From: Thermoplasmata archaeon
Lineage (GTDB): Archaea > Thermoplasmatota > Thermoplasmata > JAGHBH01
Assembly (NCBI GenBank): GCA_030673205.1
Contig: DAOVJP010000001.1
Coordinates: 1-26,536 of the forward strand
Direction: 5' to 3'
DNA length: 26,536 bases
The notes under the pieces: model-generated
The model's database searches: none
What the model was told of the DNA's origin: nothing
The model's input: only the letters and a program-made list of their open reading frames with translations
Part shown: one piece after another, positions 647 to 26,082 of the stretch
How positions within the stretch are numbered: position 1 is the stretch's first letter
Layout: the number at the start of each line of letters is the position of its first letter
Program-made: the position numbers and the translations under genes

Positions 647-648
647 AT

Positions 649-1884: not shown

Positions 1885-1893
1885 GGTGCGACA

Positions 1894-3429: not shown

Positions 3430-3527
3430 ACATATAGACATCGAGCTATGCAGCCTGCGGGTCTGGCATAGGGCCCTCCCATCCGGCCCTATACATCTCT
3501 CTCCAATGCCCTTTCATTCAGGTTCCC

Positions 3528-4646: not shown

Positions 4647-4745
4647 CTCCAGCGACGGACTCCACGGTAAAAGGGATCCTGGAATGAAAAAGGTTTTGCC
4701 CTATGAACAGGTATCTATTACAGATGTTCGACAGATGTCCTATGC

Positions 4746-5618: not shown

Positions 5619-5690
5619 GGAAACCTGCCCCCAGTGGAACTAATCCATTATAAGCACTTCCCCGAAATAGTGGTGTAACAGACCATTCCT

Positions 5691-6107: not shown

Positions 6108-6154
6108 AACATCACATCCCTTTCTTCATACTCTCATGTGTCACATGCATAGGG

Positions 6155-8354: not shown

Positions 8355-8402
8355 CTCCGTCACCTCGATGAGGATGGAAAGAATAGAGCATACAAAAAGA
8401 TT

Positions 8403-8454
8403 ACCTACAAAATACTCACCTGTGAACCACTCCAAACCACCTACAAACTACTCA
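8403..8454. repeat. 16-bp direct repeat pair, 15/16 identical, 36-bp period
   Basis: ACCTACAAAATACTCA (8403-8418) and ACCTACAAACTACTCA (8439-8454), upstream of glyA. Confidence 0.85.
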
Positions 8455-8712
8455 TCCACGAGCAACTTCCAATTGCCTGCAGAGTGCCTCCTTCTCCTCT
8501 GGGTCCAGCTTCATCAATCGGTGTGCGGGTATGACTATATCCATTATAGGACATAGAGGGGCCATGTGCAGGTAATTGAGCTTTTCCAAGCTTCTCAATG
8601 CTTTCAGTAGCTCCTCCTTTGGGATATGTAGCTCGCTGGATAACTGGATGGTCGTGTAAGGGTGATCGCCGGATATCAAAAGAGCAACCAGCCGCTCCTC
8701 TAGACCGGTCAT
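8452..8712 (-). CDS. Small wHTH-like protein, paralog B
   Basis: 86 aa. Shares SGDHPYT and LEKLNYLHMAP with the upstream gene; ATGA-type 4-nt overlap with it. Confidence 0.75.
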   Translation of the reverse strand: MTGLEERLVALLISGDHPYTTIQLSSELHIPKEELLKALRSLEKLNYLHMAPLCPIMDIVIPAHRLMKLDPEEKEALCRQLEVARG

Positions 8713-9038
8713 TCCTCTCTCCCCGCCCCCACATCTACGGATGGAAAAGATAGAATACTATTCAGACCGTTCTCTAGTTCCTCTTTCTCTAGGGTCTCAC
8801 AGAGTTCGTCCTTCTCCTCTACGCTCATCTTTAGCAGGCGGTTCATAGGGACGATCATGTCGAGATTGGGAGACACAGGGGCCATGTGCAGATAATTGAG
8901 CTTCTCCAGAGCTCTCAACGTCCTCATGATTTCCTTTCTTGCCATATGAAGCTCTTTAGTGATCTGACCCGTGGTATACGGGTGATCACCAGACATTAGG
9001 AAGAGGACCACGTTCTCGTTTGTATCGGTCGTTGTCAA
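8709..9038 (-). CDS. Small wHTH-like protein, paralog A
   Basis: 109 aa. TTG start with SD GAGGTG. Pattern YTxxQIxxELxMxxxEIxxxLxxLExxxYL resembles a winged HTH. Confidence 0.75.
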   Translation of the reverse strand: MTTTDTNENVVLFLMSGDHPYTTGQITKELHMARKEIMRTLRALEKLNYLHMAPVSPNLDMIVPMNRLLKMSVEEKDELCETLEKEELENGLNSILSFPSVDVGAGREE

Positions 9039-9431
9039 GTTCGCACACCTCTAAGAAGGATATCTCGGATTGAGAGCGAACCCTCCTAAACTGTTTAACC
9101 CAAAGACTCCTTCACATATATGATATTCTCTAGATGGTTTAATAAGATTTCCACAAATAATGTAAATCTCCCTCCTTATAGATTTCCATTATCATACTTA
9201 GTATGGGTTTTGTATGCAAATAGTTGTCAAAATTCCATGCAGTGCTTTCATTGCACCCTGCGCCTACATCATCCACACCCCAATCATCCACGCCAGCTCC
9301 ACCTACGCCCACAACAGCTCCATGAGGAACGACTAGCCAGCAAGTCATCTTCGTGTGTGAACAGGGGAGAAAATGATATAAAGGGGGTACAGTGTTCCCC
9401 GCCCCACGTCCGCCCAAGGGAGGCAAGCAAA

Positions 9432-12400: not shown

Positions 12401-12782
12401 CACCACCATCTCCGCTCTGGACAAGGGCGAATGGGGCAACGCCACCTTCTCATGGGAGCCTGCAGAATCCGGCGATCAGATGTTGACCGCCGAGGCAACC
12501 ACCGAAGGGGACATAACAGAACCATACATCCACCTCAGTGAGAGCGTCGCCGTCGAGCCCAGCGCCATGGAAGCCTACGGAACCACCATCATAGTGGTAG
12601 TGGTCATCGTTGTCCTCTTGGTACTCCTTTTCGGAAGGGACAAGATAAAGGACATCTTGGCTAAAGCAAGTGGTCCCAAGGAACCAAAAGAGCCTAAAGA
12701 GCCCAAGGAAAAGAAAGAGAAGAAAGACAAGGGCGAGAAGAAAGAGAAGAAAGACAAGAAGGGAAAAGAAGACAAACTCTAG
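9432..12782 (+). CDS. Large secreted/cell-surface protein (signal peptide, carboxypeptidase-regulatory-like Ig folds, 3 PKD, CARDB, C-terminal TM, Lys/Glu tail)
   Basis: Start MRKNQW.. at 9432 (SD GGGAGG) with a hydrophobic signal ending AQA. PKD motifs YKWDFG, FNWMFGDG and YIWEWGDG; PDIEV..VINTG is CARDB-like. About 25 NxS/T sequons by hand count. Confidence 0.85.
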   Translation: MRKNQWIGIIAAVLMVLSTAMVVSMPEAQAEDLNNPIIQGFVGITTNVNVTVTEGQSTYLKAGSITVQLFKTFDLYNTEPYMTTPTASGGYFHFEVPPGSYTLGIESKESDGTFYYRDGTILVEELGYNDINASAHIAIAEATVESHFHGIIADDDGPVTGATVTFHKENFGFTASDITDNDGIYDVDVFADTFDMSVEIDGTVRYYGAATATVKASDNVVMTLNETPYNGDVTVKVNGAAHDDADVALAGQTLTVSELKNNDKVEVNYYWQKPTNESKNTYVNIDPAKFTLSPSPVDGSITNVGYKNITAWYTLNGDYSYDPTTKKLDVTTVINGTLYAAYSYLEQDIAGARYAGRNVNDVTLSEILLGGRVMDDDTSSYIMEANIYAVMYDGTHIYTSVSPGPSFSIMVPKENPAKDYTLIVYPEGYAPSTTTQNVGTTNIDIDDLVFTSLEDQSSLETHIFSRDETWDHITITKTMALNAYDSFPGMDMDFKNVRFQLDENKDGTLNQTELDDFTADLVAKGPEFLSTSGFFYFNDTDYNSVTGSYGVTINVPGLDATHPVPVNATTPITAVFTMNYNANDLIAEDEEEYPAELLFDTDTGVYRLTLLENYSRSDNSAYNEPNAAGTVDVVFDSSRDLSQSMTIKKRSTPVADIVVGAGVISKLDGEKYFIKNGTNVTFDASGSSVSDGTIEQYKWDFGADLGTWNESATSFYNFTADDQDGVTVKLWVKDTTGQINDTTILIIPDGQAPTVNIDVDLTLAAGELWIGQGDSVEFNGNQSTDGDVTEYDNLTFNWMFGDGGLSSEDIVSHSYVDNGTYEVTLNITDEVGNVGTTTLTIHVNDTNDPIAQFTPDLANPQEGDNVTFDASASYDSEGSVITYIWEWGDGTDGDEVTDAKIEHTFEKNGTFQVNLTVKDEMGNEGKTSRSINVRLGPRPDIEVKEINVDGTPVNGKAVTVTVTVINTGNENCSGSVTVVLKDGDGNTIGTTTISALDKGEWGNATFSWEPAESGDQMLTAEATTEGDITEPYIHLSESVAVEPSAMEAYGTTIIVVVVIVVLLVLLFGRDKIKDILAKASGPKEPKEPKEPKEKKEKKDKGEKKEKKDKKGKEDKL

Positions 12783-12808
12783 GGTTCCTTAGCCTTCGAC
12801 CAAACACC

Positions 12809-12828
12809 CTTCCCCTTTTCCTTTTTTT
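12809..12828 (+). terminator. Probable archaeal oligo-T terminator
   Basis: Pyrimidine tract ending in T7 (12822-12828), ~40 nt after the stop codon. Confidence 0.55.
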
Positions 12829-12914
12829 ACCATCTAGCGGTCCTGCAACACAGAGGATCCGCATTGAGTATGCTCCTATACCCTTCGCCCATGCCTACCG
12901 CTGCATCTCAACCT

Positions 12915-14819
12915 CTACCGGTCCTTTCCATAGCCGATGGTTCCCATCGCCATCTCTATCTCCCCTAGGACGGCGGGGTCGTCTATGGTGGATGGGATCG
13001 CATATTCCTCACTATCCGCTATCTTGCGCATGGTGCCCCGCAATATCTTGCCGGAGCGGGTCTTCGGGAGCCGCTCCACCACCACCGCTTTCTTGAAGCA
13101 GGCAATGGCCCCTATTTCGGACCTGACACTTTGCACCACCTCGGAGGCCACCTCTTGGGGGCTCTTGCTGGCACCGGATTTTAGTACGAAGAGTCCTATG
13201 GGTACCTGGCCGCGTAGGTTGTCCGCCACACCCATCACCGCGCATTCTGCCACGTCGGGGTGTTCGGCCACGATCTCTTCCATGCTCCCAGTGGAGAGAC
13301 GATGGCCAGAAACGTTGATCACATCGTCCACGCGTCCCATGACAAATACATATCCATCTTCGTCCACATACCCACCATCCCCTGTGAAATAGTATCCGGG
13401 ATAGGGGTCCATGTATGTCTCTTTGAATCCCTTCTCATTCTGCCAGAGAGTGGAGAAGGTGCCGGGGGGCAGCGGGAGTTTGACAGCTATGATCCCATTC
13501 TCCCCTCTTGGCAGCTCTTCGCCACTGACTGGGTCCAGTATCCTTATGTCATATCCCGGCATGGGCACCGTGGCCGATCCCGGTTTCACCGGGAATTCTT
13601 CCAGGCCGCGGAAGTTCCCCGCTATCGTCCATCCCGTCTCTGTCTGCCACCAGTGGTCTATCACCGGCACCTTCAACAGGTTGGCAGCCCAGTGATAGGT
13701 GTCCGGGTCCAACCTCTCCCCTGCAAGGAAAAGGGTCTCGAAGGACGAGAGATCATATCCCTCCAGGTATTTTCCCTCTGGATCCTCTCTTTTTATGGCC
13801 CGGAAGGCCGTGGGGGCGGTGAACAGCGCCTTCACATTGTGCTGGGATATGACCCGCCAGAAAGCGCCGGGGTCCGGCGTTCCTATGGGCTTCCCTTCGT
13901 ACATCAGTGTTGTGGCACCAAGGAGCAGAGGGGCGTACACAATATAGGAATGGCCCACTACCCACCCAACGTCCGAAGCGGCCCAATAAACATCCCCCGG
14001 GTTAATTCCATAGATGTGTTTCATGGTCCATTTCATGGCAACTGCGTGGCCTCCGTTATCCCGTACCACGCCCTTCGGCAGCCCAGTGGTCCCGGATGTA
14101 TAGAGTATGTAAAGAGGGTCTGTAGCCTTCACCGGGACACAGTCCGCCGGGGAGGCGTTCTCCTCCTGCTCCATCCAATCCATGTCCCGTCCAGGGCGCA
14201 TCTCCGCGCTCACCTGGGGCCTCTGGAGTATCACGCATCTCTCGGGTTTGTGGGATGCGATGTCCACCGCCTCGTCCAGAAGCGGTTTGTAAGAGATAAC
14301 CTTCTGCCCCTCAATGCCACAGGATGCGGATAATATCACTTTGGGTCGAGCGTCATCTATCCTTATGGCCAGTTCCTTAGGGGCGAACCCTCCGAAGACA
14401 ACGGAGTGCACAGCACCCAACCGGGCGCAGGCCAGCATGGACATCAACGCCTCGGGTATCATGGGCATGTAGGATATGACGGTGTCCCCTTTGCCCACGC
14501 CAAGACCCTTGAGGAAACCAGCTATCTTGGACACTCTGTCCTTCAGTTCAGAATATGTGAACTTCGTGATGGTGTCGGTCACCGGGCTGTCGTAGATGAG
14601 GGCTGTCTGCTCTCCCCTTCCCTCTTCCACATGGTAGTCCAGGGCGTTGTAGCAGGTGTTCATCTCGCCGCCCACGAACCACTTGTAGAAAGGCATATTG
14701 GACGTGTCCAACACCTTGTCCCATTTCTTGTACCATGCTATATCCTCGCCTACATTGCCCCAGAATGCCTCCGGGTCTTCCATCGATTCCTTGAATGCCT
14801 TCTCGTATTCGCCGCCCAT
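12915..14819 (-). CDS. prpE: AMP-forming short-chain acyl-CoA synthetase, propionyl-CoA synthetase (PrpE/ACSS3)-like
   Basis: Motifs YTSGTTGLPKG and PKTRSGKILR. FLAGERLD and DHWWQTETGW resemble PrpE/ACSS3 more than Acs (VGEPI, DTWWQTETGG). Substrate not proven. Confidence 0.7.
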   Translation of the reverse strand: MGGEYEKAFKESMEDPEAFWGNVGEDIAWYKKWDKVLDTSNMPFYKWFVGGEMNTCYNALDYHVEEGRGEQTALIYDSPVTDTITKFTYSELKDRVSKIAGFLKGLGVGKGDTVISYMPMIPEALMSMLACARLGAVHSVVFGGFAPKELAIRIDDARPKVILSASCGIEGQKVISYKPLLDEAVDIASHKPERCVILQRPQVSAEMRPGRDMDWMEQEENASPADCVPVKATDPLYILYTSGTTGLPKGVVRDNGGHAVAMKWTMKHIYGINPGDVYWAASDVGWVVGHSYIVYAPLLLGATTLMYEGKPIGTPDPGAFWRVISQHNVKALFTAPTAFRAIKREDPEGKYLEGYDLSSFETLFLAGERLDPDTYHWAANLLKVPVIDHWWQTETGWTIAGNFRGLEEFPVKPGSATVPMPGYDIRILDPVSGEELPRGENGIIAVKLPLPPGTFSTLWQNEKGFKETYMDPYPGYYFTGDGGYVDEDGYVFVMGRVDDVINVSGHRLSTGSMEEIVAEHPDVAECAVMGVADNLRGQVPIGLFVLKSGASKSPQEVASEVVQSVRSEIGAIACFKKAVVVERLPKTRSGKILRGTMRKIADSEEYAIPSTIDDPAVLGEIEMAMGTIGYGKDR

Positions 14820-14843
14820 CGGATCACTTCCATCGAACTGTTC

Positions 14844-14947
14844 TATCTATCTTATTACATCCCTTACGATATCTATCTTATTACATCCCTTACGATATCT
14901 ATCTTATTACATCCCTTACGATATCTATCTTATTACATCCCTTGCGA
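14844..14947. repeat. Tandem repeat, 4 x 26 bp (TATCTATCTTATTACATCCCTTACGA)
   Basis: Copies start at 14844, 14870, 14896 and 14922; the last has one mismatch (14944) and overlaps the 3' end of the acyl-CoA dehydrogenase gene. No spacers. Confidence 0.97.
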
Positions 14948-16064
14948 TCACGAGACGCTGTATCTCCGACGTTCCTTCGTATATCTGGGTCACCTTTGCG
15001 TCTCTGAAATACCGCTCTACCACATAATCCTCGGTGTAACCATAGCCTCCATGTATCTGGATGGCATCTGTGGCGTTCTCCATCGCCGCCTCGGAGGCAA
15101 AGAGCTTCGCCATGGATGCCTCTCTGGTATAGCGTGATCCCGTATCCTTCAGGTATGCGGCCTTGTGAACAAGCAAACGAGCGGCGTCCACCTTCACAGC
15201 CATGTCCGCCAATTTCCACTGGATAGCCTGGAACTTGGCTATGGGTCGTCCGAACTGCTCTCGCTCCTTTGCATATTTCACACTCTCCTCCAACGCTCCC
15301 CTGGCTATGCCCACGCATTGTGCGGCTATGCCTATCCTTCCTCCGTCCAGTGCAGAGAGCGCTACCTTGAGCCCTGCGCCCTCGCCCCCTAACAGATTCT
15401 CTTGTGGAACATAACAATCCTCGAAGATGAGCTCGGATATCACGTCCGCATGCATCCCCATCTTCTCCTCTATCTTTCCAATGGTGAAGCCAGGGGTGTT
15501 TTTCTCCACGATGAAGGTGCTCAGCCCCCTGGAGCCCTTCGACCTGTCCGTCATGGCGGTGATTATGAGACATCCCGCATCTGGCCCGTTGGATATGAAA
15601 CATTTTGCGCCGTTCAGGACGTATCCCTCCCCTTTCCTCTCCGCCTTTGTCTGTATGGCCATGGCGTCGGAGCCCGCCTCTGGCTCGGTGATGGCAAAGC
15701 CCCCTACCATCTCACCTTTTGCGAGCGGCGGCACGTATTTCCTTTTCTGCTCCTCTGACCCGTATCGAAGTATAGGGAGGGTGCCCACGGAGGTGTGCAC
15801 TGCCACTATGACGGCGAGAGCGGCCCATGTCCTAGCGATCTCTTCCAATGCTAGGATGTAGGATATCATGTCCGTTCCGCCCCCGGAATATTCTTTTGGC
15901 ACGGGCATTCCAAGCAATCCCATCTTTGCCATCTTGGCCACATATTCCATAGGAAATTCCCGGGTCGCGTCCGCCTCTGAAGCGAAGGGGGCGACCTCTT
16001 CTTCCATGAATACGCGCACCGATTCCTGGATCATCCGTTGTTCCGGGGTTAGATCGAAGTTCAT
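14925..16064 (-). CDS. acd: Short-chain acyl-CoA dehydrogenase (butyryl-CoA dehydrogenase-like)
   Basis: Motifs FAITEPEAGSD, LNGAKCFISNG, EEKMG, GRIGIAAQ, R.QFGRPI, QIHGGYGY and IYEGTSEIQ. Confidence 0.93.
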   Translation of the reverse strand: MNFDLTPEQRMIQESVRVFMEEEVAPFASEADATREFPMEYVAKMAKMGLLGMPVPKEYSGGGTDMISYILALEEIARTWAALAVIVAVHTSVGTLPILRYGSEEQKRKYVPPLAKGEMVGGFAITEPEAGSDAMAIQTKAERKGEGYVLNGAKCFISNGPDAGCLIITAMTDRSKGSRGLSTFIVEKNTPGFTIGKIEEKMGMHADVISELIFEDCYVPQENLLGGEGAGLKVALSALDGGRIGIAAQCVGIARGALEESVKYAKEREQFGRPIAKFQAIQWKLADMAVKVDAARLLVHKAAYLKDTGSRYTREASMAKLFASEAAMENATDAIQIHGGYGYTEDYVVERYFRDAKVTQIYEGTSEIQRLVIARDVIR

Positions 16065-16165
16065 ATGCTCACCTCTGGAATAGAATTCACCTATGCTCTC
16101 CTAAGCATGGGTCGTTCGCTTGCCTCTGAGATGGCCTCATTTACCTCTGAGATATAGGCGCCCAC

Positions 16166-16996
16166 TCATTCACCTCTGAAATCCGGCTCTCTCTTCTCCA
16201 CAAAAGCCGCCATGCCCTCTTTCTGGTCCTTGGTGGCAAAGAGACCGGAGAAGAGCTTCGCCTCATGCTCCAACCCGTTGGCCAGAGTCATGTCCAGGCC
16301 CTCGTCCATCGCCTTTTTGGCGTTCTTCATCGCAACCGGACCCTTTGAAGCTATCTTGGTAGCCATGTCCATGGCGGCCTTGAGAACGGGTTCGTTGTCC
16401 TGCACCGGCTTTCCCTTTTCGTTCCTTATGCGCTCCCCGTTCTCATCCTTCTTGTAGCCCTCCACCACCTGCTGGGTCAAGCCTATGCTCTGGGCGGCTT
16501 TGGCGTTGATGATATCTCCGGTGTATATGAGTTCCTTGGCCTTGCCAGAGCCCACGAGGCGTGTTAGTCGCTGGGTTCCTCCAAAACCTGGGATGACGCC
16601 AAGGCTTACCTCTGGTTGGCCGAACTTAGCCGCCTCCGAGGCTATTCTGATATCACATGCCAGTGCCATCTCCGTTCCTCCTCCCAGGGCAAAGCCGTTG
16701 ACAGCCGCGATAACGGGGATAGGAAGCTGTTCCAGCTTTCTGAGCACACCATGGCCCAAATGGGCAAAGGCCAACGCTCCTTCGGGGTCCAGGTCCATCA
16801 TCTCTTTTATGTCGGCACCGGCCACGAACGCTCTCCCGGCGCCGGTGAGGACCACAGTCCTTATGGCGGGGTCCGAGCCTATGTCGTCGAGCGCCTTGTC
16901 TAGCTCGTTCAACAGCGCGGTGCACAGCACGTTCATGGGGGGGTTGTTGATTGTTATTACGGCGACCCCGTCCTTCTTCTCCATATCTATCATCAT
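16166..16996 (-). CDS. crt: Enoyl-CoA hydratase (crotonase) 1
   Basis: Motifs FVAGADIKE, GGGTE and GQPEV..G.IPG.GGTQRL (both catalytic Glu). Start placed at ATG 16996 after GGAAGGTGAG. Confidence 0.9.
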   Translation of the reverse strand: MMIDMEKKDGVAVITINNPPMNVLCTALLNELDKALDDIGSDPAIRTVVLTGAGRAFVAGADIKEMMDLDPEGALAFAHLGHGVLRKLEQLPIPVIAAVNGFALGGGTEMALACDIRIASEAAKFGQPEVSLGVIPGFGGTQRLTRLVGSGKAKELIYTGDIINAKAAQSIGLTQQVVEGYKKDENGERIRNEKGKPVQDNEPVLKAAMDMATKIASKGPVAMKNAKKAMDEGLDMTLANGLEHEAKLFSGLFATKDQKEGMAAFVEKREPDFRGE

Positions 16997-17012
16997 CTCA
17001 CCTTCCTGCCGT

Positions 17013-17867
17013 TCATCGAGTATATTCAAAGAATCCACGCCCGGTCTTCCTACCCAGGTAGCCCGCGTTCACCATCTTCTTCAATAGAGGGCAGGGCCGA
17101 TATTTGGAATCGGCGAAGCCGCCATACAAGACCTCCATGATGTACAAGCACGTGTCCAGGCCTATGAGGTCTGCCAGTTCCAGAGGGCCCATGGGATGGT
17201 TCATTCCCAGCTTCATCACCCCGTCTATGTCCTCTTTGCTAGCCACACCTTCCATGAGGCAGAACACCGCCTCGTTGATCATGGGCATGAGTATCCTGTT
17301 GGATATGAAGCCGGGGTAGTCGTGGGCCTCTATCGGGATCTTCCCCACCTGCTTTGCCAGCGCCACCACGCTCTCCGCTGTCTCATCGGACGTTCCCAGG
17401 CCCCTTATGACCTCTATCAGTTTCATGATGGGGACGGGGTTGAAGAAGTGCATGCCTATGAACTTGTCTGGCCGGGATGTGGCGGCGGCCATCTCGGTGA
17501 TGGGTATGGTGGACGTGTTGGAGGCGAATATGACATCCGGCCCGCATATCTCGTCCAGTTCCTTGAACACCTTCTTCTTCAATTCGATATTCTCCACCAC
17601 CGCCTCTATGATTATCTCACAGTCTTTCAGGTCTTCCACTTTGGTGGTTCCCTTTATCAGTGCCAGCGCCTGCTTCTTCTCCTCTTCGGTCATCTTTTCT
17701 CTGGCCACGCTCTTGGACAGGAACTTGTCTATCTTCTGCAGTCCGTTGTCCACATAGTTCTGCTCTATGTCCCGCATGATCACTTCGTGACCACTCTTGG
17801 CGGCTACCATGGCTATTCCGTGCCCCATAGTGCCTGCGCCTATGATGCCTATCTTCTTGATCTCCAT
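17013..17867 (-). CDS. hbd: (S)-3-hydroxybutyryl-CoA dehydrogenase, NAD-dependent
   Basis: Motifs GAGTMG, IIEAVVE, ASNTS, GMHFFNP, PGFISNR and HPMGPLELADLIGLD. Confidence 0.93.
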   Translation of the reverse strand: MEIKKIGIIGAGTMGHGIAMVAAKSGHEVIMRDIEQNYVDNGLQKIDKFLSKSVAREKMTEEEKKQALALIKGTTKVEDLKDCEIIIEAVVENIELKKKVFKELDEICGPDVIFASNTSTIPITEMAAATSRPDKFIGMHFFNPVPIMKLIEVIRGLGTSDETAESVVALAKQVGKIPIEAHDYPGFISNRILMPMINEAVFCLMEGVASKEDIDGVMKLGMNHPMGPLELADLIGLDTCLYIMEVLYGGFADSKYRPCPLLKKMVNAGYLGRKTGRGFFEYTR

Positions 17868-17919
17868 TCATCTCATCTCCCATATCTCGCTATTCTGCTA
17901 TCTGTAATTTATATGCAAT

Positions 17920-19098
17920 TTACATCTCCACTATCATAGCCACGGCGTTCCCGCCTCCGAGACACAACGTGGCCAATCCTCTGTGGTCGCCGCGGTCCTT
18001 CATGGCATACATGAGGGTGGTGAGCACCCGGGCGCCTGAGGCGCCTATGGGATGGCCGAGGGCCACTGCTCCGCCGTGGACGTTGAACTTCTCATCGGGT
18101 ATTCCAAACTCCTTCTGGACGGCCACGGATGCGGATGAGAATGCCTCGTTGTGCTCCCAGAGATCTATATCCTCCGTGGTCAAACCGGTCTTTTCCAACA
18201 ACTCCTTTATGGCAGGCACGGGGGCCTCCATGACATCCTCAGGAACGACGCCGGAAGTGTGATATCCAACTATCTTGGCCATGGGCGTTATGCCCTTCTC
18301 CTCCGCCTTCTTCCGGCTCATCACGACCACCGCCGACGCCCCGTCCGATATCTGGGAGGCGTTGCCCGGGGTGATGATCCCATCCTTCTTGAAGGCCGGC
18401 CTGAGACGTGCAAGCCTCTCTATGGTGGTGTCCGGTCTCGGTCCCTCGTCAGTATCGAATACGATGGGGTCGGCCTTTCTCTGGGGCACTTCTACGGGGA
18501 CTATCTCGGCTTTGAACTTGCCTGTGTCTATGGCGGCGCAGGCCTTCTTGTGGCTGTTGAACGAGAATTGGTCCAGCTCTTCTCTGGAGAGGTTGTAGTG
18601 CTCGGCGATGCGTTCGCCGGTGATGCCCATGTGGAAGTTGTTGTATATCTCCCACAACCCATCGTTCACCATGGAATCCACCAATTTCCCGTCACCCAGA
18701 CGGTAGCCGACTCTGGCATCTTGTAACAGATAAGGGCAGCGGGTCATGTTCTCCATGCCACCTGCCACAATTATGTCATGTTCTTCGGTCCTTATGGAAT
18801 TGGCGGCGAACATTATGGTCTTGAGCCCTGACCCACAGACCTTGTTTATGGTCGTCGCTCCGACGTTGTACGGTATCTTGGCGCCGATGGCCGCCTGTCT
18901 TGCCGGGTTCTGTCCCAATCCCGCCTGGACCACCAGACCCATGAGCACCTCTTCCACATCTTCCACGGAGATGTTCGCTCTCTTGATCGCTTCCTGGATC
19001 ACTATGGTGCCTAGCTTTGGCGCCGGAGTGCCTTTCAGAGAGCCGTTGAACTTTCCCATGGCCGTTCTTACCGCTGAAACTATGACTGCCTCTTCCAT
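17920..19098 (-). CDS. Acetyl-CoA acetyltransferase (thiolase II, bacterial PhaA/AtoB-like)
   Basis: Motifs NKVCGSG, GGMENM, HNEAF, GHPIGASG and CLGGG. Start placed at ATG 19098 (MEEAVIVSAVRT). Confidence 0.93.
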   Translation of the reverse strand: MEEAVIVSAVRTAMGKFNGSLKGTPAPKLGTIVIQEAIKRANISVEDVEEVLMGLVVQAGLGQNPARQAAIGAKIPYNVGATTINKVCGSGLKTIMFAANSIRTEEHDIIVAGGMENMTRCPYLLQDARVGYRLGDGKLVDSMVNDGLWEIYNNFHMGITGERIAEHYNLSREELDQFSFNSHKKACAAIDTGKFKAEIVPVEVPQRKADPIVFDTDEGPRPDTTIERLARLRPAFKKDGIITPGNASQISDGASAVVVMSRKKAEEKGITPMAKIVGYHTSGVVPEDVMEAPVPAIKELLEKTGLTTEDIDLWEHNEAFSSASVAVQKEFGIPDEKFNVHGGAVALGHPIGASGARVLTTLMYAMKDRGDHRGLATLCLGGGNAVAMIVEM

Positions 19099-19222
19099 CT
19101 GAATCTCTCCATCGATGTCGTGCCTGGTATTCACAATTGCTTGCGACAAAAGGTTACCATGCCTCTTCGCCTCTCCTGATCTGAGAGGCTGTCCTACACA
19201 TGTCAGGGCTATATGCGCTCGG

Positions 19223-19236
19223 GTTTAAGTATTTTG
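19223..19236 (-). promoter_or_regulatory. Putative BRE-TATA promoter for thiolase-hbd-crt-acd
   Basis: Minus strand reads CAAAATACTTAAAC inside a 234-bp intergenic gap. Confidence 0.5.
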
Positions 19237-19332
19237 TACCCCCCCCCTCCGCCCATGTTCATTCCTCTGAGCTCGCTCTCCCATGTTATAGCGGATCGCC
19301 TAAGCTATACCCTAAAACGACTCCAAGAGACC

Positions 19333-20121
19333 TCATCTATCCTCGAACTTGGGATGCCTTCCCTCAAGGAACGCTCTCATCCCCTCTTTCTGGTCGTAGG
19401 TGTCGAAGAGCTCTGTCCACCTCTCCACCTCGAACGCTAACCCGTCCTCTATGAAGCTCTCGTGGAGCTGGTTGATCGCTCTCTTCGCGTTGAAGAGGGC
19501 GTGCTTTCCTTTGCTGGCCATAGTCTCCGCCAGGGCCATGACCACATCCTCCAGGTTCTCCCTCGGCACCACGTGATTGACCAGACCGATCTCCATTGCC
19601 TCGTGGGCGTCTATTCGTTTGCCGGTGTATATCATCTCTTTGGCTTTCGCGATCCCCACTATCCTAGAGAGGCGCTGGGTCCCCCCCCATCCAGGAATGA
19701 CGCCGATGTCTATCTCCGGCTGGGAGAACACAGAGCCCTCCGCTGCTATTCGGATGTCGCAGGCGCATGCAAATTCCACCCCGCCTCCCAACGTGTATCC
19801 GTGGATGCCGATGATGACCGGCTGGGGCATGGTCTCCAGCTTCCGGGCTATCCGATGGCCCATCTGGGCGAACCTCTTTCCCCCCTCGCGGTCCTTCGCA
19901 CTCATCTGTTTGATGTCGGCACCAGCGGTGAAGGCCTTCTTGCACGCGCTTAGGAGGACGAGCACTTTGACGTTCTCGTTCCGGCCTATCTCGTCGAGGA
20001 TGCTAGCGAACTCGTCCAGGGTCTCTTCGTTGAACACGTTCAGGAACTTGGGCCTGTTCAGTGTTATGGTGCCTATCCCATTTTTGATATCGACCTTCAG
20101 ATTCGTGGGCTCTTTTTCCAT
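19333..20121 (-). CDS. crt: Enoyl-CoA hydratase (crotonase) 2
   Basis: Motifs FTAGADIKQ, GGGVE and SQPEI..G.IPG.GGTQRL. Confidence 0.9.
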   Translation of the reverse strand: MEKEPTNLKVDIKNGIGTITLNRPKFLNVFNEETLDEFASILDEIGRNENVKVLVLLSACKKAFTAGADIKQMSAKDREGGKRFAQMGHRIARKLETMPQPVIIGIHGYTLGGGVEFACACDIRIAAEGSVFSQPEIDIGVIPGWGGTQRLSRIVGIAKAKEMIYTGKRIDAHEAMEIGLVNHVVPRENLEDVVMALAETMASKGKHALFNAKRAINQLHESFIEDGLAFEVERWTELFDTYDQKEGMRAFLEGRHPKFEDR

Positions 20122-20157
20122 GAGATTCCCTTCCGATAAAAGACGTGGGCTGTTAAA

Positions 20158-21309
20158 TCATTTTCCACTTTTCTTCGTGGAAGACTTTTTGGAGACGCCT
20201 TTCTGTTTCGGCGGCTTTGCCTCTTCTCCCTTCACGCTTGACCTCTCTCTCAGCCATTCGGACACTTGGGGCCACATCTTGGCATGGGCGGCCGAACTCA
20301 CTGAGAGACCTATATGGCCAGTCTTGAAGAGCATCAGCTTTTTGTCCTTGCTAGGTATCAGGTCGGTGAAGGACATGCTCGACTCGGGGGGTACCAGATT
20401 GTCGTATTGTGCGACGATGTTCAATACTGGCATCGTCAGTTTGTTCAGATACACCCTCTTTCCGTCGAGTTCAAGCTGCGACTTCACTAGGAGGTTCTGT
20501 TGATAGCACTTCTTCATGAACTCCCTGTACGCCTCTCCTGCCAGAGGTATCCCATCATTTATCCACTTCTCCATCCTGAAGAACATCCTCACGAACTCCT
20601 CGTTGTCCGCCTTGCCTGTGAACATCACGTACTTGGAGTAGAGGTTGTTGACCGGGTTGAGAAGGAGGAAGCCGAAGTTCAGGAACTCCCCTGGCACGTT
20701 GCCCACCGTGTCCACCAGCTTATCGGTGTCGAAGTATTCTGGCCCGGCCCAGAGGCGAAGGAGACCCTGGTCCGCCTCGAAGTCCAGTGGCGTCACCATC
20801 AATACTAGGTTCCTCACCTTTTCAGGGTGGAGTGCCGTGAACATGGTGGAGAGGGTGCCGCCCATGCAATACCCCAATATGGAGATGGAGTCCAGGTGGT
20901 GCCGGGTTCTGATGAAGTCTACCACATCGTTGATGTACCAGTTTACGTAGTCGTCAAGGGTGAAGTATTTGTCCCCCTCAGTGGGCGTGCCCCAGTCTAT
21001 CAGATAGACATCAAATCCCTCGTTCAACAGCCTCCGGATGACGCTCCTGTCCGGTTGTAGGTCAAGGATGTAAGGCTTGTTCACGAGGGCGTAGACGATC
21101 AGGAGCGGTACCTTGTGCTGCTCCTCGGTGATCGGGAGGTAGTGAAGCAGTCTCATCTTCCCGTCCTCGAATACCACATTCGAGGGGGTGGTCCCCACCT
21201 CCACGTCCGGGGGGTTCAACAAGAGTTTGAGCGCCTGTTCTCTCTTGCGCCACATCTCTTGCGTCTCCTCGAACTTGACCTTGAGATCCTCTCTATCGTC
21301 GGATACCAT
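20158..21309 (-). CDS. phaC: Class III PHA synthase catalytic subunit
   Basis: 383 aa. Motifs PLLIVYALVNKPYILDLQP..S, GFDVYLIDWG, lipase-box GYCMGG, FFRMEKWINDG, catalytic Asp (YDNLVP) and His (GHIG). Confidence 0.95.
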   Translation of the reverse strand: MVSDDREDLKVKFEETQEMWRKREQALKLLLNPPDVEVGTTPSNVVFEDGKMRLLHYLPITEEQHKVPLLIVYALVNKPYILDLQPDRSVIRRLLNEGFDVYLIDWGTPTEGDKYFTLDDYVNWYINDVVDFIRTRHHLDSISILGYCMGGTLSTMFTALHPEKVRNLVLMVTPLDFEADQGLLRLWAGPEYFDTDKLVDTVGNVPGEFLNFGFLLLNPVNNLYSKYVMFTGKADNEEFVRMFFRMEKWINDGIPLAGEAYREFMKKCYQQNLLVKSQLELDGKRVYLNKLTMPVLNIVAQYDNLVPPESSMSFTDLIPSKDKKLMLFKTGHIGLSVSSAAHAKMWPQVSEWLRERSSVKGEEAKPPKQKGVSKKSSTKKSGK

Positions 21310-21343
21310 TTCCTATCACCTGGCGTCCATGGGTGGCAACCGG

Positions 21344-22168
21344 TCAGCCCTTCACCTCTCTATTGTCCTTGGAGGAGTTGACGGTCCGTGCCACCTCGCT
21401 GATCTTCCGGTCCAGCTCGTGGAGCTTCCGATATATCTCGTCTATGTGGTCCTTCGTGGGAAGGCCTACCGCGCTCAGGTATTGCTTCATGGACTGTTGG
21501 CTCTCCTGGAGCATCTCCAGGTTCCGAGTAAGGACATCACCGTTCATCTCCGCGAAGCCTGGACGCCCTATCGCGTCCATGATCATCTTCGAGCATTCCT
21601 CGGTCCAGAGGTCGTTCAGCTCCTTCCACTTGACGGCATAATCCTTATCTCCCCCATCGGAGGCGAGGATGCTCTGTGATCTCTCCCACATCTCCCGCCA
21701 GAACTGGCTCAGATCTTCCAGATGGGCCGCATCCTTCACGGAGAACGCGTCCATCCACAGTTCGTAGAGGTCCTTCTGTCTCTTTATCCTCTCGTTCATC
21801 AGCCCTGTCAACTGCTCTCCCATCTTCGTGGAGTCCTCCGACCAGAGTTGGTAGAGCTCTTTGTAGGGGATGTCCTTCTTGCCAAAGAGGTCGACGAACT
21901 TCTGCCCCATCCTGTCCGAGTATTCGCCCCAGAGCTTCTGCATCTCTTCGAACCCGGGTTTGTCCTCGGTTGACACTTCGCCGAGCTTCTCACTCATCAA
22001 CTGGGCGTATTCTGACCATAGGCCGTACAGATCTTCGTATCTCTTTGCGCCTTCTTTTGTGAGCTCTGGAATCCTGTCGGTGAGGTCTTTCGATAGATCG
22101 AGCCAAGCCTCATAGAACTTCTCGTAGTCCTTGTCGTTCTGCTCCTTTTTGCCTTCGTCTTTTGCCAT
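21344..22168 (-). CDS. phaE: PhaE-like class III PHA synthase subunit with 29-aa internal repeats
   Basis: Immediately upstream of phaC. C-terminal GLPTKDHIDEIYRKLHELDRKI resembles the conserved PhaE C-terminal motif; all-helical composition. Confidence 0.8.
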   Translation of the reverse strand: MAKDEGKKEQNDKDYEKFYEAWLDLSKDLTDRIPELTKEGAKRYEDLYGLWSEYAQLMSEKLGEVSTEDKPGFEEMQKLWGEYSDRMGQKFVDLFGKKDIPYKELYQLWSEDSTKMGEQLTGLMNERIKRQKDLYELWMDAFSVKDAAHLEDLSQFWREMWERSQSILASDGGDKDYAVKWKELNDLWTEECSKMIMDAIGRPGFAEMNGDVLTRNLEMLQESQQSMKQYLSAVGLPTKDHIDEIYRKLHELDRKISEVARTVNSSKDNREVKG

Positions 22169-22207
22169 CTAGACCACCTGGACATGATGGGTAAGGAGAA
22201 GGGGAAA

Positions 22208-23158
22208 TTAGTCTTTTTGCTCGTCCAACTTCTTTTCCAGGTCCGCGACCTTCTTATTCAGGTCTGCGACCTCATCTCGTACCTTCTGAGGGCCAAAGAA
22301 GGGGAACATCGTCCAGCCCTTCTGGAAACCCGCCATTCTCTCGAAGTACATCTTATAGAGGCCCTCGTAGTCGGTGCCGGAGGCCTGCATGGTGTTGGTC
22401 AAACGTGCACCCATCTTCTCGGTCTCTTTGAGCCAGGTGCCATAGACGTTCTCGTAATCGTTCTTTCGCCCGTCGAAGAACTCCATCATGCTGTCTCCGA
22501 ACCTGTCGGACATGGTGTTCCACATGGCATTTATCTCGTTGGTATGGACCTCGTTCTCCGTGACCATGGTGTCCGTGATCTTGGTCATCTTGTCGGTAAG
22601 GTCATTCCACAGCTCGACCACCTTCTCGTTCTCGTTGGGGAGGGATACGAGCCTCGCGAACTGTGTGTTTATCGTGTTCGAGAAGTCGAACCAAGAGGTG
22701 TAGATGTCCTGCAAGGTGTTCTTTTCCGTCCCCTCCATCATCGGGGTGTTCTTCATGCTGTTCATCACGAAGTCCTGGTACATATCGGTCAGTGCTCTGA
22801 TGTTGGTCGTGTTCCTCTCAACGATGTTCTCCAGGCGAACCCCTATCTTGTTGGAGTAGTTCTTCCACACGTTGAACATCTCCGTGTATCCCTTTTCCTC
22901 CGCCTCCTCGTTCATGGGGGGTTTCAGCCTCATCGTCATGCTCTTGGAGAAGTCTTTCCAACCGTTGTACATCTTCTCGTATTCGTTCCTGCTATCTTTC
23001 AGGACGCCTGTGATCTGGCTCTCCATCCGCTTCGAATAGTCGATCCACGGGTCGAAGACGGTGGGGGTGTTTGGCATCTCTGGTCTCTCCGGCCTCTTTG
23101 CCCCGGGGGTTTTGATCGGGTCCTGCGTTCTCCTTTTTGGTGTTCCTGTCTTTTTCAT
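22208..23158 (-). CDS. 29-aa repeat helical protein: second PhaE-like subunit or novel granule-associated (phasin-like) protein
   Basis: SD AGGAGAGG. Basic Pro-rich N-tail, nine W/Y-anchored repeats and a C-terminal coiled coil. Lies between phaB and phaE. Confidence 0.65.
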   Translation of the reverse strand: MKKTGTPKRRTQDPIKTPGAKRPERPEMPNTPTVFDPWIDYSKRMESQITGVLKDSRNEYEKMYNGWKDFSKSMTMRLKPPMNEEAEEKGYTEMFNVWKNYSNKIGVRLENIVERNTTNIRALTDMYQDFVMNSMKNTPMMEGTEKNTLQDIYTSWFDFSNTINTQFARLVSLPNENEKVVELWNDLTDKMTKITDTMVTENEVHTNEINAMWNTMSDRFGDSMMEFFDGRKNDYENVYGTWLKETEKMGARLTNTMQASGTDYEGLYKMYFERMAGFQKGWTMFPFFGPQKVRDEVADLNKKVADLEKKLDEQKD

Positions 23159-23208
23159 GTTTTTCCTCTCCTCATTTTATTCTATCATAAGCTATCTATT
23201 GAGCTTGA

Positions 23209-24027
23209 TCAGATGTACATGCCTCCGTTTATGTTCAATACGTGGCCGGTGATGTAGGATGCGTCATCGGATGTTAGGAACGCCACCGCCTTCCCTATCT
23301 CCTCCGGCATCCCGAACCGTCTCAAGGGTATCTGGGCCAGTATCTTCTCCTTGACCTTGTCAGGTATCCCGCTGACCATATCGGTCTCTATGAAACCGGG
23401 GGCGATGGCATTGACCGTGATCTTGTTCCTCGCCAGCTCCTTCGCTAGGGATTTCGTCATACCTATGACACCCGCCTTGGAGGCCGCATAGTTCGCCTGC
23501 CCTATGTTTCCCATCTGGCCCACGATGGAGGTGATGTTTATGATTCTCCCGTGCTCGGATTCCATCAGATGGTCAAGGAACGTGCTCGTGCAATTGAAGA
23601 CGCCGTTCAGGTTGACCTGGATGACCTTGTTCCAGCTCTCTTGATCCATCTTCTTGAACAGCATGTCCACGTTGATGCCAGCGTTGTTGACCAGTATGTC
23701 TATCTTTCCGAAGTATTTCTCGACGACCGCGCGCATCTCCTCCACTTCACCAATGTGGCTTATATCCGCACGGTATGTCCAGGTGTCCGCGCCGATGGCC
23801 TCGGCGCCCATGGCCACCATCTCTGCCTTCTCCTCGCTCGAGCGGTAGTTCACCGCGACATCGGCCCCCGCCTCCGCCAGTGCTTCCACGATCGCCCTCC
23901 CAATACCCCTGGACGCCCCAGTCACCAGTGCTTTCCTGCCAGTCAGCCTCTGGCTGGAGGCCCGGGTACCCGGGTTCACAGCCGGGTCCCGTGCTTTTAT
24001 ACCCTTCACAGACTCCTCTATGCTCAT
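23209..24027 (-). CDS. phaB: Acetoacetyl-CoA reductase (SDR, probably NADPH-dependent)
   Basis: Motifs TGASRGIG, NYRSS, NNAGI, S..GQ.GN.GQANYAASKAG, PGFIET and NINGG. First gene of the phaE/phaC unit. Confidence 0.85.
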   Translation of the reverse strand: MSIEESVKGIKARDPAVNPGTRASSQRLTGRKALVTGASRGIGRAIVEALAEAGADVAVNYRSSEEKAEMVAMGAEAIGADTWTYRADISHIGEVEEMRAVVEKYFGKIDILVNNAGINVDMLFKKMDQESWNKVIQVNLNGVFNCTSTFLDHLMESEHGRIINITSIVGQMGNIGQANYAASKAGVIGMTKSLAKELARNKITVNAIAPGFIETDMVSGIPDKVKEKILAQIPLRRFGMPEEIGKAVAFLTSDDASYITGHVLNINGGMYI

Positions 24028-24122
24028 GTTCTCTCTCCCCTACGTTTGACTCGCTCACGGCGATCACGTTCATATGTCGTTGTTCGATCATCGTGGACGA
24101 TAGTTACAGACAGAAATCCCTC

Positions 24123-24139
24123 TAATATATGCTTTCTTC
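24123..24139 (-). promoter_or_regulatory. Putative BRE-TATA promoter of the pha operon
   Basis: Minus strand reads GAAGAAAGC-ATATATTA, ~95 nt upstream of the phaB ATG, in an AT-rich divergent gap. Confidence 0.5.
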
Positions 24140-24200
24140 AAACTATGTTAAAGAATGAGTGTGTATACTGTACATTTTACTTACAAATCACCTACAATTT

Positions 24201-24217
24201 GAGAAACTCTTATATAT
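24201..24217 (+). promoter_or_regulatory. Putative BRE-TATA promoter of the wHTH-PAS regulator
   Basis: GAGAAACTC-TTATATAT 60 nt upstream of ATG 24277; SD GGAGG at 24261-24265. Confidence 0.65.
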
Positions 24218-24276
24218 CTATACGGTCATATATCAACCAGACTGTCCTTTACCCCGGGCAGGAGGCCTACATCAAC

Positions 24277-26082
24277 ATGCCCACATTAAAACAGACACTC
24301 TCATATCTGATATTGGGGAAGAGAGGGGGGCAGAACAGGATACAGATCATCGAACTGCTCAAAGAGCGACCATACAACATCAACCAGATGGCCGAAGTGC
24401 TGGGCCTGAACTATCGCACCATCAAACACCATGTCGATGTACTTCTGGAACATGAGTTGATCAACACATCCAAGACCGGAGGGTACGGAGAGGTATATTT
24501 CCTGAGCCCCGAGATGGAAGAGAACATGGATCTCTTCGAGGGAATAGTGAAGAAACTCGCGAACATCACATCCTCCCCCAGATTCTTTCAGAGCGTGGTT
24601 GAACAGACGCACGACGCCGTCATAATCATAGACACCGATGGTGAAACCCTATTCTGGAACAAGAGCGCAGAGAAGATATACGGCTACAAGGAGAAAGAGG
24701 TATTGGGCGACGCCGTTCCCATCTTTTCATATTCCCGTTTCCTGGAAAAGATGATAACCCAGGCCGTAGAGGGAAGGAAGATAACGGCTTTCGAGACCAA
24801 GGCCCGTCACAAGTCCAGAGAGCTCATCGACGTGAGCGTCACGATAGATGCCATCAAAGATGAGAACAAGCAGATGATAGGATTCTCCATCCTATCCAGG
24901 GACATCACCGAGCGAAAGCGGGCGGAATGGGCGCTCCAGATGTCGGAAAAGCGTTTCAAGGAGGTCTTCGAGAACACACCGATCGGCGTGTACCAGACCA
25001 CCCCTGATGGGCAGATACTCATGGCGAACCCTGCATTGGTAGATATGCTGGGCTTCTCCTCGTTCGAGGAGATCGCCCAACGGGATCTGGAGGGAGAAGG
25101 ATTCCATCCAGACTACCAGCGTGCCGAGTTCAAACGCCGTATCGAGAAGGAGGGCGAGATCAAAGGACATGAGACCATCTGGATGAGAAAGGACGGCTCC
25201 AGCCTGTTCATCCGCGAGAACGCGAGGGTCTTCCGGAACGAGAACGGGAACACGTTGTACTACGAGGGCACGGTGGAGGACATCACCGAGCACAAAAAGG
25301 CCGAGGAGGCCCTGCGAGAGAGCGAGGAACGGTTCAAACAGGTGGCCGAGAGTGCCGGGGAGTGGATATGGGAGTTGGATGCCAGTGGCCTCTACACCTA
25401 TGCGAGCCCCATGGTCGAGGAGATGCTCGGCTACAAACCGGAAGAGCTCGTTGGAAAGAAGCATTTCTACGACTTCTTTGCTCTGGATGTACAGGAAGAG
25501 TTAAAGGAAGGGGCCTTCAAGGTCTTTGAGAAGAAGAAACCGTTCAGGAACTTCGTCAATCCCAATCTGCACAAGAACGGCAAGAGGGTCATATTGGAAA
25601 CGAGCGGCTTGCCGATATTGGACAAGGACGGGGGGCTCTTAGGATATCGGGGGGCCGATACCAACATCACCGAGCGCAAGCGGGCGGAAGAGGCATTGCT
25701 GGAAGCAAAGGAAATGTACGAAACGCTCGTGAGGACCTCCCCAGATGCCATAACGGTAACCGATCTGGATGGGAACATCACGTATATATCAGAGCGGGCG
25801 CTCGAACTCCACGGCTTCGACGAATCAGAGGAAATGATCGGAAGAGGAGCCTTTGAGTTCATAGCTCCCGAAGACCATAAGAAGGCGATGGAAAATCTCC
25901 AGCGGACGTTGGAAGAGGGGGTTATAAGAGGTGTGAAATACACTATGCTGAGGAAGGATGGGACCCGTTTCATCGGTGAACTAGACGCCTCATTGATAAG
26001 GGACGCACAAGGAGAACCAAAAGCATTTATCGCCATCACGAGGGACATCACCGGGCGCAAACGGGCGAAAAAAGACCTCTAG
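24277..26082 (+). CDS. One-component transcription regulator: ArsR-like wHTH plus four PAS/PAC domains
   Basis: 601 aa. N-terminus RGGQNRIQIIELL.ERPYNINQMAEVLGLNYRTIKHHVDVL. Four PAS repeats, each ending in a DITER/EH/GR(K) motif; no kinase domain. Confidence 0.88.
   Translation: MPTLKQTLSYLILGKRGGQNRIQIIELLKERPYNINQMAEVLGLNYRTIKHHVDVLLEHELINTSKTGGYGEVYFLSPEMEENMDLFEGIVKKLANITSSPRFFQSVVEQTHDAVIIIDTDGETLFWNKSAEKIYGYKEKEVLGDAVPIFSYSRFLEKMITQAVEGRKITAFETKARHKSRELIDVSVTIDAIKDENKQMIGFSILSRDITERKRAEWALQMSEKRFKEVFENTPIGVYQTTPDGQILMANPALVDMLGFSSFEEIAQRDLEGEGFHPDYQRAEFKRRIEKEGEIKGHETIWMRKDGSSLFIRENARVFRNENGNTLYYEGTVEDITEHKKAEEALRESEERFKQVAESAGEWIWELDASGLYTYASPMVEEMLGYKPEELVGKKHFYDFFALDVQEELKEGAFKVFEKKKPFRNFVNPNLHKNGKRVILETSGLPILDKDGGLLGYRGADTNITERKRAEEALLEAKEMYETLVRTSPDAITVTDLDGNITYISERALELHGFDESEEMIGRGAFEFIAPEDHKKAMENLQRTLEEGVIRGVKYTMLRKDGTRFIGELDASLIRDAQGEPKAFIAITRDITGRKRAKKDL

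Follow-up and report, generated by a model that had tools for sequence, protein, structure and literature searches.

Among archaea, the synthesis of polyhydroxyalkanoates (PHA) is established in the haloarchaea, and genes for it are known from Thaumarchaeota. An earlier note on the DNA described here named these two groups, and the list proves to be longer. PHA accumulation has been shown experimentally in Candidatus Methanoperedens (PMC8561730), and PHA is predicted in Archaeoglobaceae by a study whose screen of Thermoplasmata genomes detected no PhaC (bioRxiv 10.1101/2025.05.06.652502). We found no paper describing PHA synthesis genes in Thermoplasmata, subscription journals being outside our coverage. 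Here we describe such a locus in contig DAOVJP010000001.1 of an uncultured Thermoplasmata archaeon, a stretch of 26,536 nucleotides that was analysed at its full length and is called the window below. The window is an entire contig of a metagenome-assembled genome (MAG), whose 485 contigs total 2.04 Mb, with completeness put at 72.5% and contamination at 1.2%; all genome-wide negative results below refer to this 72%-complete genome. Ten co-oriented open reading frames (ORFs) lie on the minus strand at 12915-24027, and their identities, taken from Pfam and NCBIfam (Table 1), bear out those given to them in the earlier note. We read them as a working class III PHA synthesis operon, physically joined to the short-chain acyl-CoA module that is usual in the class. 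Judging from sequence, we put the probability of this reading at about 0.62. The gene identities, catalytic and cofactor motifs, paralogy, synteny and distribution on which it draws are established.

The haloarchaeal maoC-phaR-phaP-phaE-phaC cluster resembles the window in its two-subunit PhaE-PhaC synthase, with a GxCxGG box and a Cys-Asp-His triad. It also shares an NADPH-type reductase of the FabG family and a hydratase gene within the cluster, and its PhaC is 52-55% identical to that of the window. Unlike the haloarchaeal cluster, the window has no MaoC/PhaJ, no AbrB-type PhaR and no haloarchaeal PhaP. Their absence had been remarked on before, and our searches agree: MaoC (PF01575) had no match in the window or the genome, no AbrB-type PhaR was present among the window ORFs scanned, and known phasin families were not found. 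Haloarchaeal PhaC hits are 455-540 aa long and carry a C-terminal HhH extension (PF14520), whereas the window PhaC has 383 aa and a Lys-rich tail. Further, Trp repeats form an N-terminal domain of the window PhaE, a PhaE paralogue occupies the phaP position, and the hydratase at the MaoC position is a crotonase. The thiolase is a single-subunit Cys-His-Cys enzyme, and the host is not of the salt-in type.

The Candidatus Methanoperedens cluster (locus L013; PMC8561730) likewise belongs to a non-halophilic, anaerobic archaeon. In it, a Trp-rich helical protein is followed by phaE and then phaC, and its operon includes reductases of the short-chain dehydrogenase/reductase (SDR) family and a single-subunit thiolase. 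However, its PhaC is only about 50% identical and belongs to another clade, its PhaE is short (181 aa) and has no repeat domain, and the cluster lacks a crotonase, Hbd, Acd and ligase, all four of which are present in the window. Bacterial class III PhaEC, of the Allochromatium vinosum and Synechocystis type, is similar in that its model (TIGR01836) is passed, in its nearly identical catalytic numbering and in having phaE directly upstream of phaC. It differs from the window in that the window PhaE scores only 39.5 bits on the bacterial PhaE model TIGR01834, against a cut-off of 155 (154.95), and in that the window has an additional PhaE paralogue and an archaeal host. Four loci from several Thermoplasmata lineages (L007, L014, L023 and L042) repeat the order phaB, Trp-repeat protein, PhaE, phaC, crotonase. 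These loci share with the window a reductase, one or more PhaE-like coat proteins, PhaE, PhaC and often a dedicated crotonase. The window differs from them in its marine cold-seep source, in a separate PhaC clade shared with family f2, and in being the only one of those seen to be joined to thl-hbd-crt2-acd-lig.

Table 1. Features of the PHA locus and its surroundings, in window coordinates.
Feature	Position	Strand	Basis
phaB-like FabG-family SDR, NADPH-type, presumed acetoacetyl-CoA reductase	23209-24027	-	TIGR01830 match, pha linkage
rep, 316-aa Trp-anchored helical repeat protein, PhaE paralogue, candidate granule coat	22208-23158	-	no family model matched
PhaE, five N-terminal Trp repeats and canonical C-terminal domain	21344-22168	-	PF09712
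Class III PhaC, catalytic subunit, Lys-rich C-terminal tail	20158-21309	-	TIGR01836
crt1, crotonase-family enoyl-CoA hydratase, phaC-linked	19333-20121	-	PF00378
234-nt spacer between modules, possible internal promoter (candidate)	19099-19332	-	largest gap of cluster
Thiolase (thl), single-subunit Cys-His-Cys acetyl-CoA C-acetyltransferase	ORF 17920-19149, likely gene 17920-19098	-	TIGR01930
Hbd, NAD-type (S)-3-hydroxybutyryl-CoA dehydrogenase	17013-17867	-	NF004474
crt2, crotonase of beta-oxidation-type block	ORF 16166-17038, likely gene 16166-16996	-	PF00378
acd, Bcd/AcrC-like short-chain acyl-CoA dehydrogenase	14925-16064	-	all Acyl-CoA_dh domains
lig, PrpE/Acs-type short-chain (C2-C3) acid:CoA ligase	12915-14819	-	NF007815 / Acs subfamily models, 5gxd
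HTH (ArsR-like) protein with four PAS domains, divergent from phaB, possible regulator	24277-26082	+	Pfam HTH_5 and PAS

PhaC scores 449.9 bits on TIGR01836, against a cut-off of 365.3, and the genome search returns the same score. Its triad of C148 (in GYCMGG), D303 and H332 aligns with C319, D480 and H508 of the R. eutropha synthase (5hz2), and phaE ends 34 nt upstream of its gene. With 383 aa, it agrees with the size of about 40 kDa expected of a class III catalytic subunit. A PhaC phylogeny, as the earlier note had advised, places the protein in a fully supported clade of Thermoplasmata PhaCs, together with family f2 (support 100). There are at least three PhaC clades among Thermoplasmata, one of them sister to the haloarchaeal enzymes. 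Strong PhaC matches occur in 44 of the 401 sampled genomes of the class (about 11%), spread over at least 11 families, and 32 of them exceed the curated cut-off. Such genes have already been named phaC by NCBI auto-annotation. The idea that PHA may be undescribed in this lineage thus stands for the papers we could search, but the genes themselves are present elsewhere in the class and are not new to the databases.

A different role for this protein has to be considered, namely that it is mainly degradative, acting as a hydrolase or thiolytic enzyme on PHA or on some other ester. PhaC-like genes of Borgs have been suggested to be degradative (preprint 10.1101/2023.08.01.549754), no separate depolymerase was found in the genome, and the neighbouring (S)-crotonase, Hbd and thiolase are catabolic enzymes. 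Yet the protein passes the class III synthase cut-off, its nucleophile is the Cys of GYCMGG and not the Ser of hydrolases, and PhaE and an NADPH-type reductase accompany it. In addition, the related Methanoperedens cluster goes with demonstrated PHA accumulation (PMC8561730). We consider a mainly degradative role highly improbable.

Two side observations concern PhaC sequences. The Lys-rich tail of the window PhaC (window 20158-20220) is kept in character across its clade (L010, L011), and the N-termini of both PhaE and the repeat protein are basic; in PhaCs of haloarchaea and soda lakes, the HhH domain (PF14520) is found at that end instead. Features of this kind might tether granules to DNA. 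Separately, a PhaC on a 4.3-kb contig labelled Synechococcus sp. UW140 (L039) is almost identical to those of two Bacteroidota MAGs (L037, L038), and this contig is probably mis-binned.

PhaE matches PF09712 with 41.1 bits (cut-off 25.7). Its N-terminus consists of five units of about 29 residues, of the same type as those of the repeat protein, beyond which lies a C-terminal domain about 130 residues long. The latter aligns with the short PhaEs of Methanoperedens and of other Thermoplasmata, and the position upstream of phaC is conserved. The repeat protein itself is built of nine units of about 29 residues, each with a Trp or Tyr anchor. No Pfam or NCBIfam model matched it, and the phasin models PF09361, PF05597, PF09602 and TIGR01837 failed to do so even at E-values up to 10.

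The repeat protein is homologous to PhaE over nearly its full length (BLASTP 3e-12, in several registers), and alignment of the two families with hhalign gave a probability of 99.5% and an E-value of 1.9e-22 over 263 columns. Its nearest ESM clusters are PhaE clusters of Thermoplasmatota. The repeat protein is, on sequence grounds, a PhaE paralogue. Its family is small, with 50 clusters at E-values up to 0.001 among 1.84 billion representatives. This count required a full HMMER scan, since a word-based homologue search retrieved the repeat protein alone. One distant member of the family was examined, and its gene, too, precedes one for PhaE. The AlphaFold2 prediction for the repeat protein is helical throughout, with seven long helices (pLDDT 72, pTM 0.59), and a Foldseek search of the Protein Data Bank (PDB) with this model returned nothing significant. 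Profile matches to apolipophorin-III and apolipoprotein A-I were weak and probably compositional, reflecting amphipathic helices only, and homology to apolipoproteins was dropped. From its position, paralogy and helicity, we propose the repeat protein as a candidate granule coat or phasin-like protein.

The reductase scores 315.6 on the FabG model TIGR01830 (cut-off 297.75). It remains below two acetoacetyl-CoA reductase models (TIGR01829, 290.9 against 302.1; NF042966, 232.5 against 436) and is closer to FabG structures than to R. eutropha PhaB. Its motifs TGASRGIG, NYRSS and Y180xxxK184 form an NADP-type signature, and its orthologues adjoin pha genes in several Thermoplasmata lineages. No acyl carrier protein (ACP; PF00550) was found in the genome, so this FabG-type enzyme should act on CoA esters. 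In Haloarcula and other haloarchaea, FabG1 serves as PhaB (PMC7137286).

Both crotonases retain the two catalytic Glu residues and match PF00378, and neither reaches NF004475. The first, crt1, is a neighbour of phaC in two Thermoplasmata PhaC clades out of the three observed, and its tree mirrors that of PhaC, grouping it with family f2 (support 97). The second, crt2, falls in a clade of beta-oxidation crotonases linked to thl and hbd in family f15 (SH-aLRT 99). In Haloferax, the hydratase of the pha cluster, MaoC/PhaJ, serves mobilisation and not synthesis (PMC7137286), and by analogy a catabolic role for crt1 is possible.

The remaining genes form the acyl-CoA module. The thiolase scores 470.7 on TIGR01930 (cut-off 240.55) and has the NEAF, GHP and CxGGG motifs. 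The earlier note had listed it, with Hbd and the ligase, as a bacterial-type part of a distinct storage system. Homologues of the thiolase occur in 378 of the 401 sampled genomes; the gene is class-wide and is not a special acquisition. In relatives' loci, it was accompanied by hbd in all 11 examined and by crt2 in 10 of these. An archaeal DUF35/OB-fold thiolase partner is also encoded in the genome, and the window thiolase therefore need not be the mevalonate enzyme. Given this partner and the linkage to hbd and crt2, a housekeeping role in the mevalonate pathway was dropped. Hbd scores 464 on NF004474 (cut-off 408), and its GxGxxG motif is followed by D33, the Asp of NAD-type enzymes.

The dehydrogenase encoded by acd retains the catalytic Glu of YEGT and scores 528 on NF042972, below the cut-off of 640. 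The window holds no gene for an electron transfer flavoprotein (ETF). A search of the genome for an ETF and a depolymerase, as had been proposed, recovered the first and not the second: EtfAB is encoded on contig C301, beside an acd paralogue. There, at 2027-5047 of that contig, the paralogue (55% identical to the window acd) and etfA-etfB are divergently encoded. The long reading frame of etfA comprises 402-469 aa, and etfB is incomplete because the contig stops within it.

The ligase scores 751 on the PrpE model NF007815, below its cut-off of 955, and 659 against 657 on an Acs subfamily model. Its best solved relative is 5gxd (890 bits), which we take to be a bacterial PrpE. The Trp of WWQTETG is kept. 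In acetyl-CoA synthetases, this Trp restricts the acyl pocket to small acids, and the expected substrates are therefore acetate, propionate or acrylate rather than butyrate.

Clostridial-type genes leading from acetoacetyl-CoA to butyryl-CoA comprise thl, hbd, crt and bcd-etfAB, and the syntrophic butyrate oxidiser Syntrophomonas wolfei makes PHA from beta-oxidation intermediates. The window is similar to both in bringing together Thl, an NAD-type Hbd, a crotonase and a Bcd-like dehydrogenase, in its apparently anaerobic setting and in the possibility of PHA formation from C4 intermediates. It differs in having EtfAB on another contig beside a paralogue, and in having a C2-C3 ligase in place of a CoA transferase or kinase route.

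The two halves of the cluster are each conserved, and they are conserved separately. The closest relatives of the window PhaC (L010 and L011) have rep-phaE-phaC-crt1, and neither they nor L007, L014, L023 and L042 have thl-hbd-crt2-acd-lig downstream. Other families of the class, f14 and f15 among them, have thl-hbd-crt2 as a block conserved at 65-74% identity, whether PhaC is present or not. One genome encodes acd and a ligase of 75% identity no more than 12 kb away from this block. The only other instance of the ten joined genes that we saw is a second public MAG contig (L069), 99.25% identical and with the same gene order. This contig is from the same species; it backs the assembly and has no bearing on evolutionary conservation. 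The cluster is thus a species-specific joining of phaB-rep-phaE-phaC-crt1 with thl-hbd-crt2-acd-lig. The earlier note had called it a complete cluster, which overstates the case: it consists of two modules that are adjacent in this species only.

The junction between the modules is backed by independent assembly. Contigs of an independent assembly of the sole run that holds this stretch tile 12500-24500 with zero mismatches and even depth, and one contig of this (Logan) assembly spans the crt1/thl junction. Gaps within each module are 16-105 nt, and the spacer at the junction, the widest of the cluster, is identical in the second assembly. Within this spacer, at 19240-19250, is a G run of about ten residues, which is likewise identical there. 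The true starts of two genes are probably downstream of their ORF starts, at an ATG at 19098 for the thiolase and at 16996 for crt2, because model alignments begin at these positions and the second assembly calls the genes there. A 26-bp unit, repeated 4.0 times at 98% identity, occupies 14844-14948 and covers the last codons and stop of acd and most of the acd/lig spacer.

A same-family genome that is 93% complete (G001) has neither PhaC nor a thiolase homologue. Clean insertion boundaries relative to this genome were sought and abandoned, as only the gene for serine hydroxymethyltransferase (SHMT) and that for a PKD protein are syntenic, and gain and loss are indistinguishable.

Separate conservation invites another explanation, in which two independent units merely lie side by side: a PHA core operon, and a class-wide beta-oxidation or butyrate-type module for general acyl-CoA catabolism or fermentation. 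On this account, they would have only the acetoacetyl-CoA pool in common, and the second unit would not be a dedicated supplier of the first. It fits the near ubiquity of thl homologues, the occurrence of thl-hbd-crt2 in PhaC-less genomes such as G016 and G027, and the absence of such a block downstream in the closest PhaC relatives. It fits, too, the placement of the modules' nearest relatives in different families (f2 and f15, respectively) and the position of the widest spacer exactly at the junction. Against it, the genes share one strand, tight packing and even depth, and the species' second assembly has them in the same order. Further, a 71%-identical ligase lies about 3 kb from the pha cluster in locus L020, thl is inside the pha operon of Methanoperedens, and the same-family sister genome lacks both modules, making joint gain or loss possible. 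On balance, we consider two independent units unlikely, although this is the most probable of the alternatives.

Locus L020 is unusual in its own right. Labelled Candidatus Aenigmatarchaeota, it has at 2838-12807 a pha cluster of Thermoplasmata type, with two PhaE-like proteins, PhaE, PhaC and two reductases; the ligase is upstream of this cluster. Its PhaC groups with those of soda-lake Thermoplasmata. Either mis-binning of the record or transfer of the genes could account for this.

The case for a working operon joined to the acyl-CoA module can now be weighed. It is supported by the intact PhaC triad and the conserved catalytic residues of the other enzymes, by the agreement of the crt1 and PhaC trees, by the recurrence of the core order in Thermoplasmata and by a similar order in Candidatus Methanoperedens, where PHA has been shown (PMC8561730). 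The single strand, the short gaps within modules and the even read depth support it as well. Several points weigh against it. The modules are adjacent only in this species, and L010 and L011 lack the downstream block. The 234-nt spacer may divide two transcription units, and the near universality of thl-hbd-crt in the class, also in the absence of PhaC, may mean that the coupling is incidental. The reductase falls under the acetoacetyl-CoA reductase cut-offs. In a pathway to an (R)-polymer, crt1 would have an indirect role, given the (S)-specificity of crotonases. Finally, no depolymerase of the PHB_depo_C, Esterase_PHB or patatin type was found in the genome.

The reading also presupposes that the genes belong to the archaeon to which they are assigned. 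The contig could instead be mis-binned or chimeric, its true source being a bacterium or a haloarchaeon. The MAG is fragmented, and bacteria have close homologues of the thiolase, Hbd and ligase, as the score of the ligase against the 5gxd chain illustrates. However, the flanks of the cluster encode ribose-1,5-bisphosphate isomerase, form III RuBisCO, AMP phosphorylase, an archaeosortase, SHMT and a 1220-aa PKD/CARDB protein, placing an archaeal AMP pathway and an archaeosortase on the same contig. The SHMT shares 80% identity with its counterpart in the only good genome of the same family and, with those of other families, no more than 68%, and the contig is therefore consistent with its bin. 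The top PhaC matches (66-75% identity) are all labelled 'Thermoplasmata archaeon', and Thermoplasmata likewise supply the top hit for each of PhaC, crt1, thl, hbd, crt2 and lig. The GC content of the window is even, and the independent assembly tiles the region and spans the junction. The crude proteome has a bimodal distribution of isoelectric points (pI), with a median of 5.64, 24% of proteins above pI 8 and a (D+E)/(K+R) ratio of 1.38; such a composition is unlike that of a salt-in halophile. Considering the archaeal flanks, the proteome, the SHMT match and the tiling, we rejected a bacterial, haloarchaeal or chimeric origin, which we regard as scarcely credible.

The host had been described before as an apparently non-halophilic archaeon, and the flanks, the Thermoplasmata matches of PhaC and SHMT, the proteome and the source of the DNA all agree with this. 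The contig is neither bacterial nor haloarchaeal, either of which would have undone the original claim. Among public runs, only a cold-seep metagenome contains this DNA. Searches of the genome for COX1 and McrA found neither. We propose that the host is an anaerobic-looking, non-methanogenic and non-halophilic Thermoplasmata archaeon. Among the flanking genes, the archaeal AMP-salvage trio is at window 2-3429, where the contig end cuts the gene for ribose-1,5-bisphosphate isomerase. No tRNA gene lies within the window.

Control of the cluster may be exerted from its upstream neighbour. The ArsR-like protein encoded there combines HTH_5 with four PAS domains and, in Pfam, has no output domain. 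It is separated from phaB by a divergent spacer of 250 nt with AT-rich, TATA-like stretches. Its gene is not kept beside the pha genes of relatives. The protein is a possible regulator of the cluster.

What might such a cluster do? In the scheme that follows, the substrates, direction of flux, coat function, co-transcription and formation of polymer are those we would expect from the established features. The PrpE-type ligase would activate acetate or propionate, and the thiolase would condense acetyl-CoA, alone or with propionyl-CoA, to a 3-ketoacyl-CoA. The NADPH-type FabG/PhaB reductase would then yield (R)-3-hydroxyacyl-CoA, to be polymerised by PhaE-PhaC to polyhydroxybutyrate (PHB) or its copolymer with hydroxyvalerate (PHBV). 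The Trp-repeat N-domain of PhaE and the 316-aa repeat protein would form the granule coat otherwise provided by a classical phasin.

The downstream enzymes would open a second entrance to the same polymer. Together with both (S)-type crotonases and with Hbd, which is NAD-type, Acd would tie butyryl-CoA and crotonyl-CoA to acetoacetyl-CoA, its partner EtfAB being supplied from elsewhere in the genome. C4 and C5 acyl-CoA could then enter the polymer without thiolysis, passing from (S)-3-hydroxybutyryl-CoA (3HB-CoA) through acetoacetyl-CoA to (R)-3HB-CoA. No (R)-hydratase having been found, the Hbd/PhaB pair would perform this stereo-inversion. The conserved pairing of phaC with crt suggests that crotonyl-CoA is a regular entry point. 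The polymer would serve as a sink for both carbon and reducing power.

We speculate that these features reflect a more general strategy. PhaE-paralogous, Trp-anchored helical repeats of 29 residues may replace phasins in Thermoplasmata, with a related form in Methanoperedens, while an (S)-crotonase and the NAD-Hbd/NADPH-PhaB pair may replace the (R)-hydratase route. PHA might then represent the carbon and reductant sink of anaerobic seep heterotrophs living on short-chain acids, and abundant sediment archaea might constitute a PHA-storing group undescribed so far. We offer this broader proposal tentatively, and hold it with clearly less assurance than the presence of a working operon.

The core enzymology is not new, and the genes have already been auto-annotated in public MAGs; it is the helper proteins and the fused layout that are unusual. 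Particular to the window are its marine cold-seep host, its separate PhaC clade and the fusion with an acyl-CoA module. If the operon works, PHA storage would extend to anaerobic, non-halophilic Thermoplasmata of marine sediments, which are not discussed as polymer-storing in the papers that could be searched. It would also provide a mesophilic archaeal PhaEC with new helpers: a coat family derived from PhaE, and a dedicated crotonase in the place of PhaJ. Models of carbon cycling in seeps and sediments would then be missing a pool of carbon and reducing equivalents that is at present unaccounted for.

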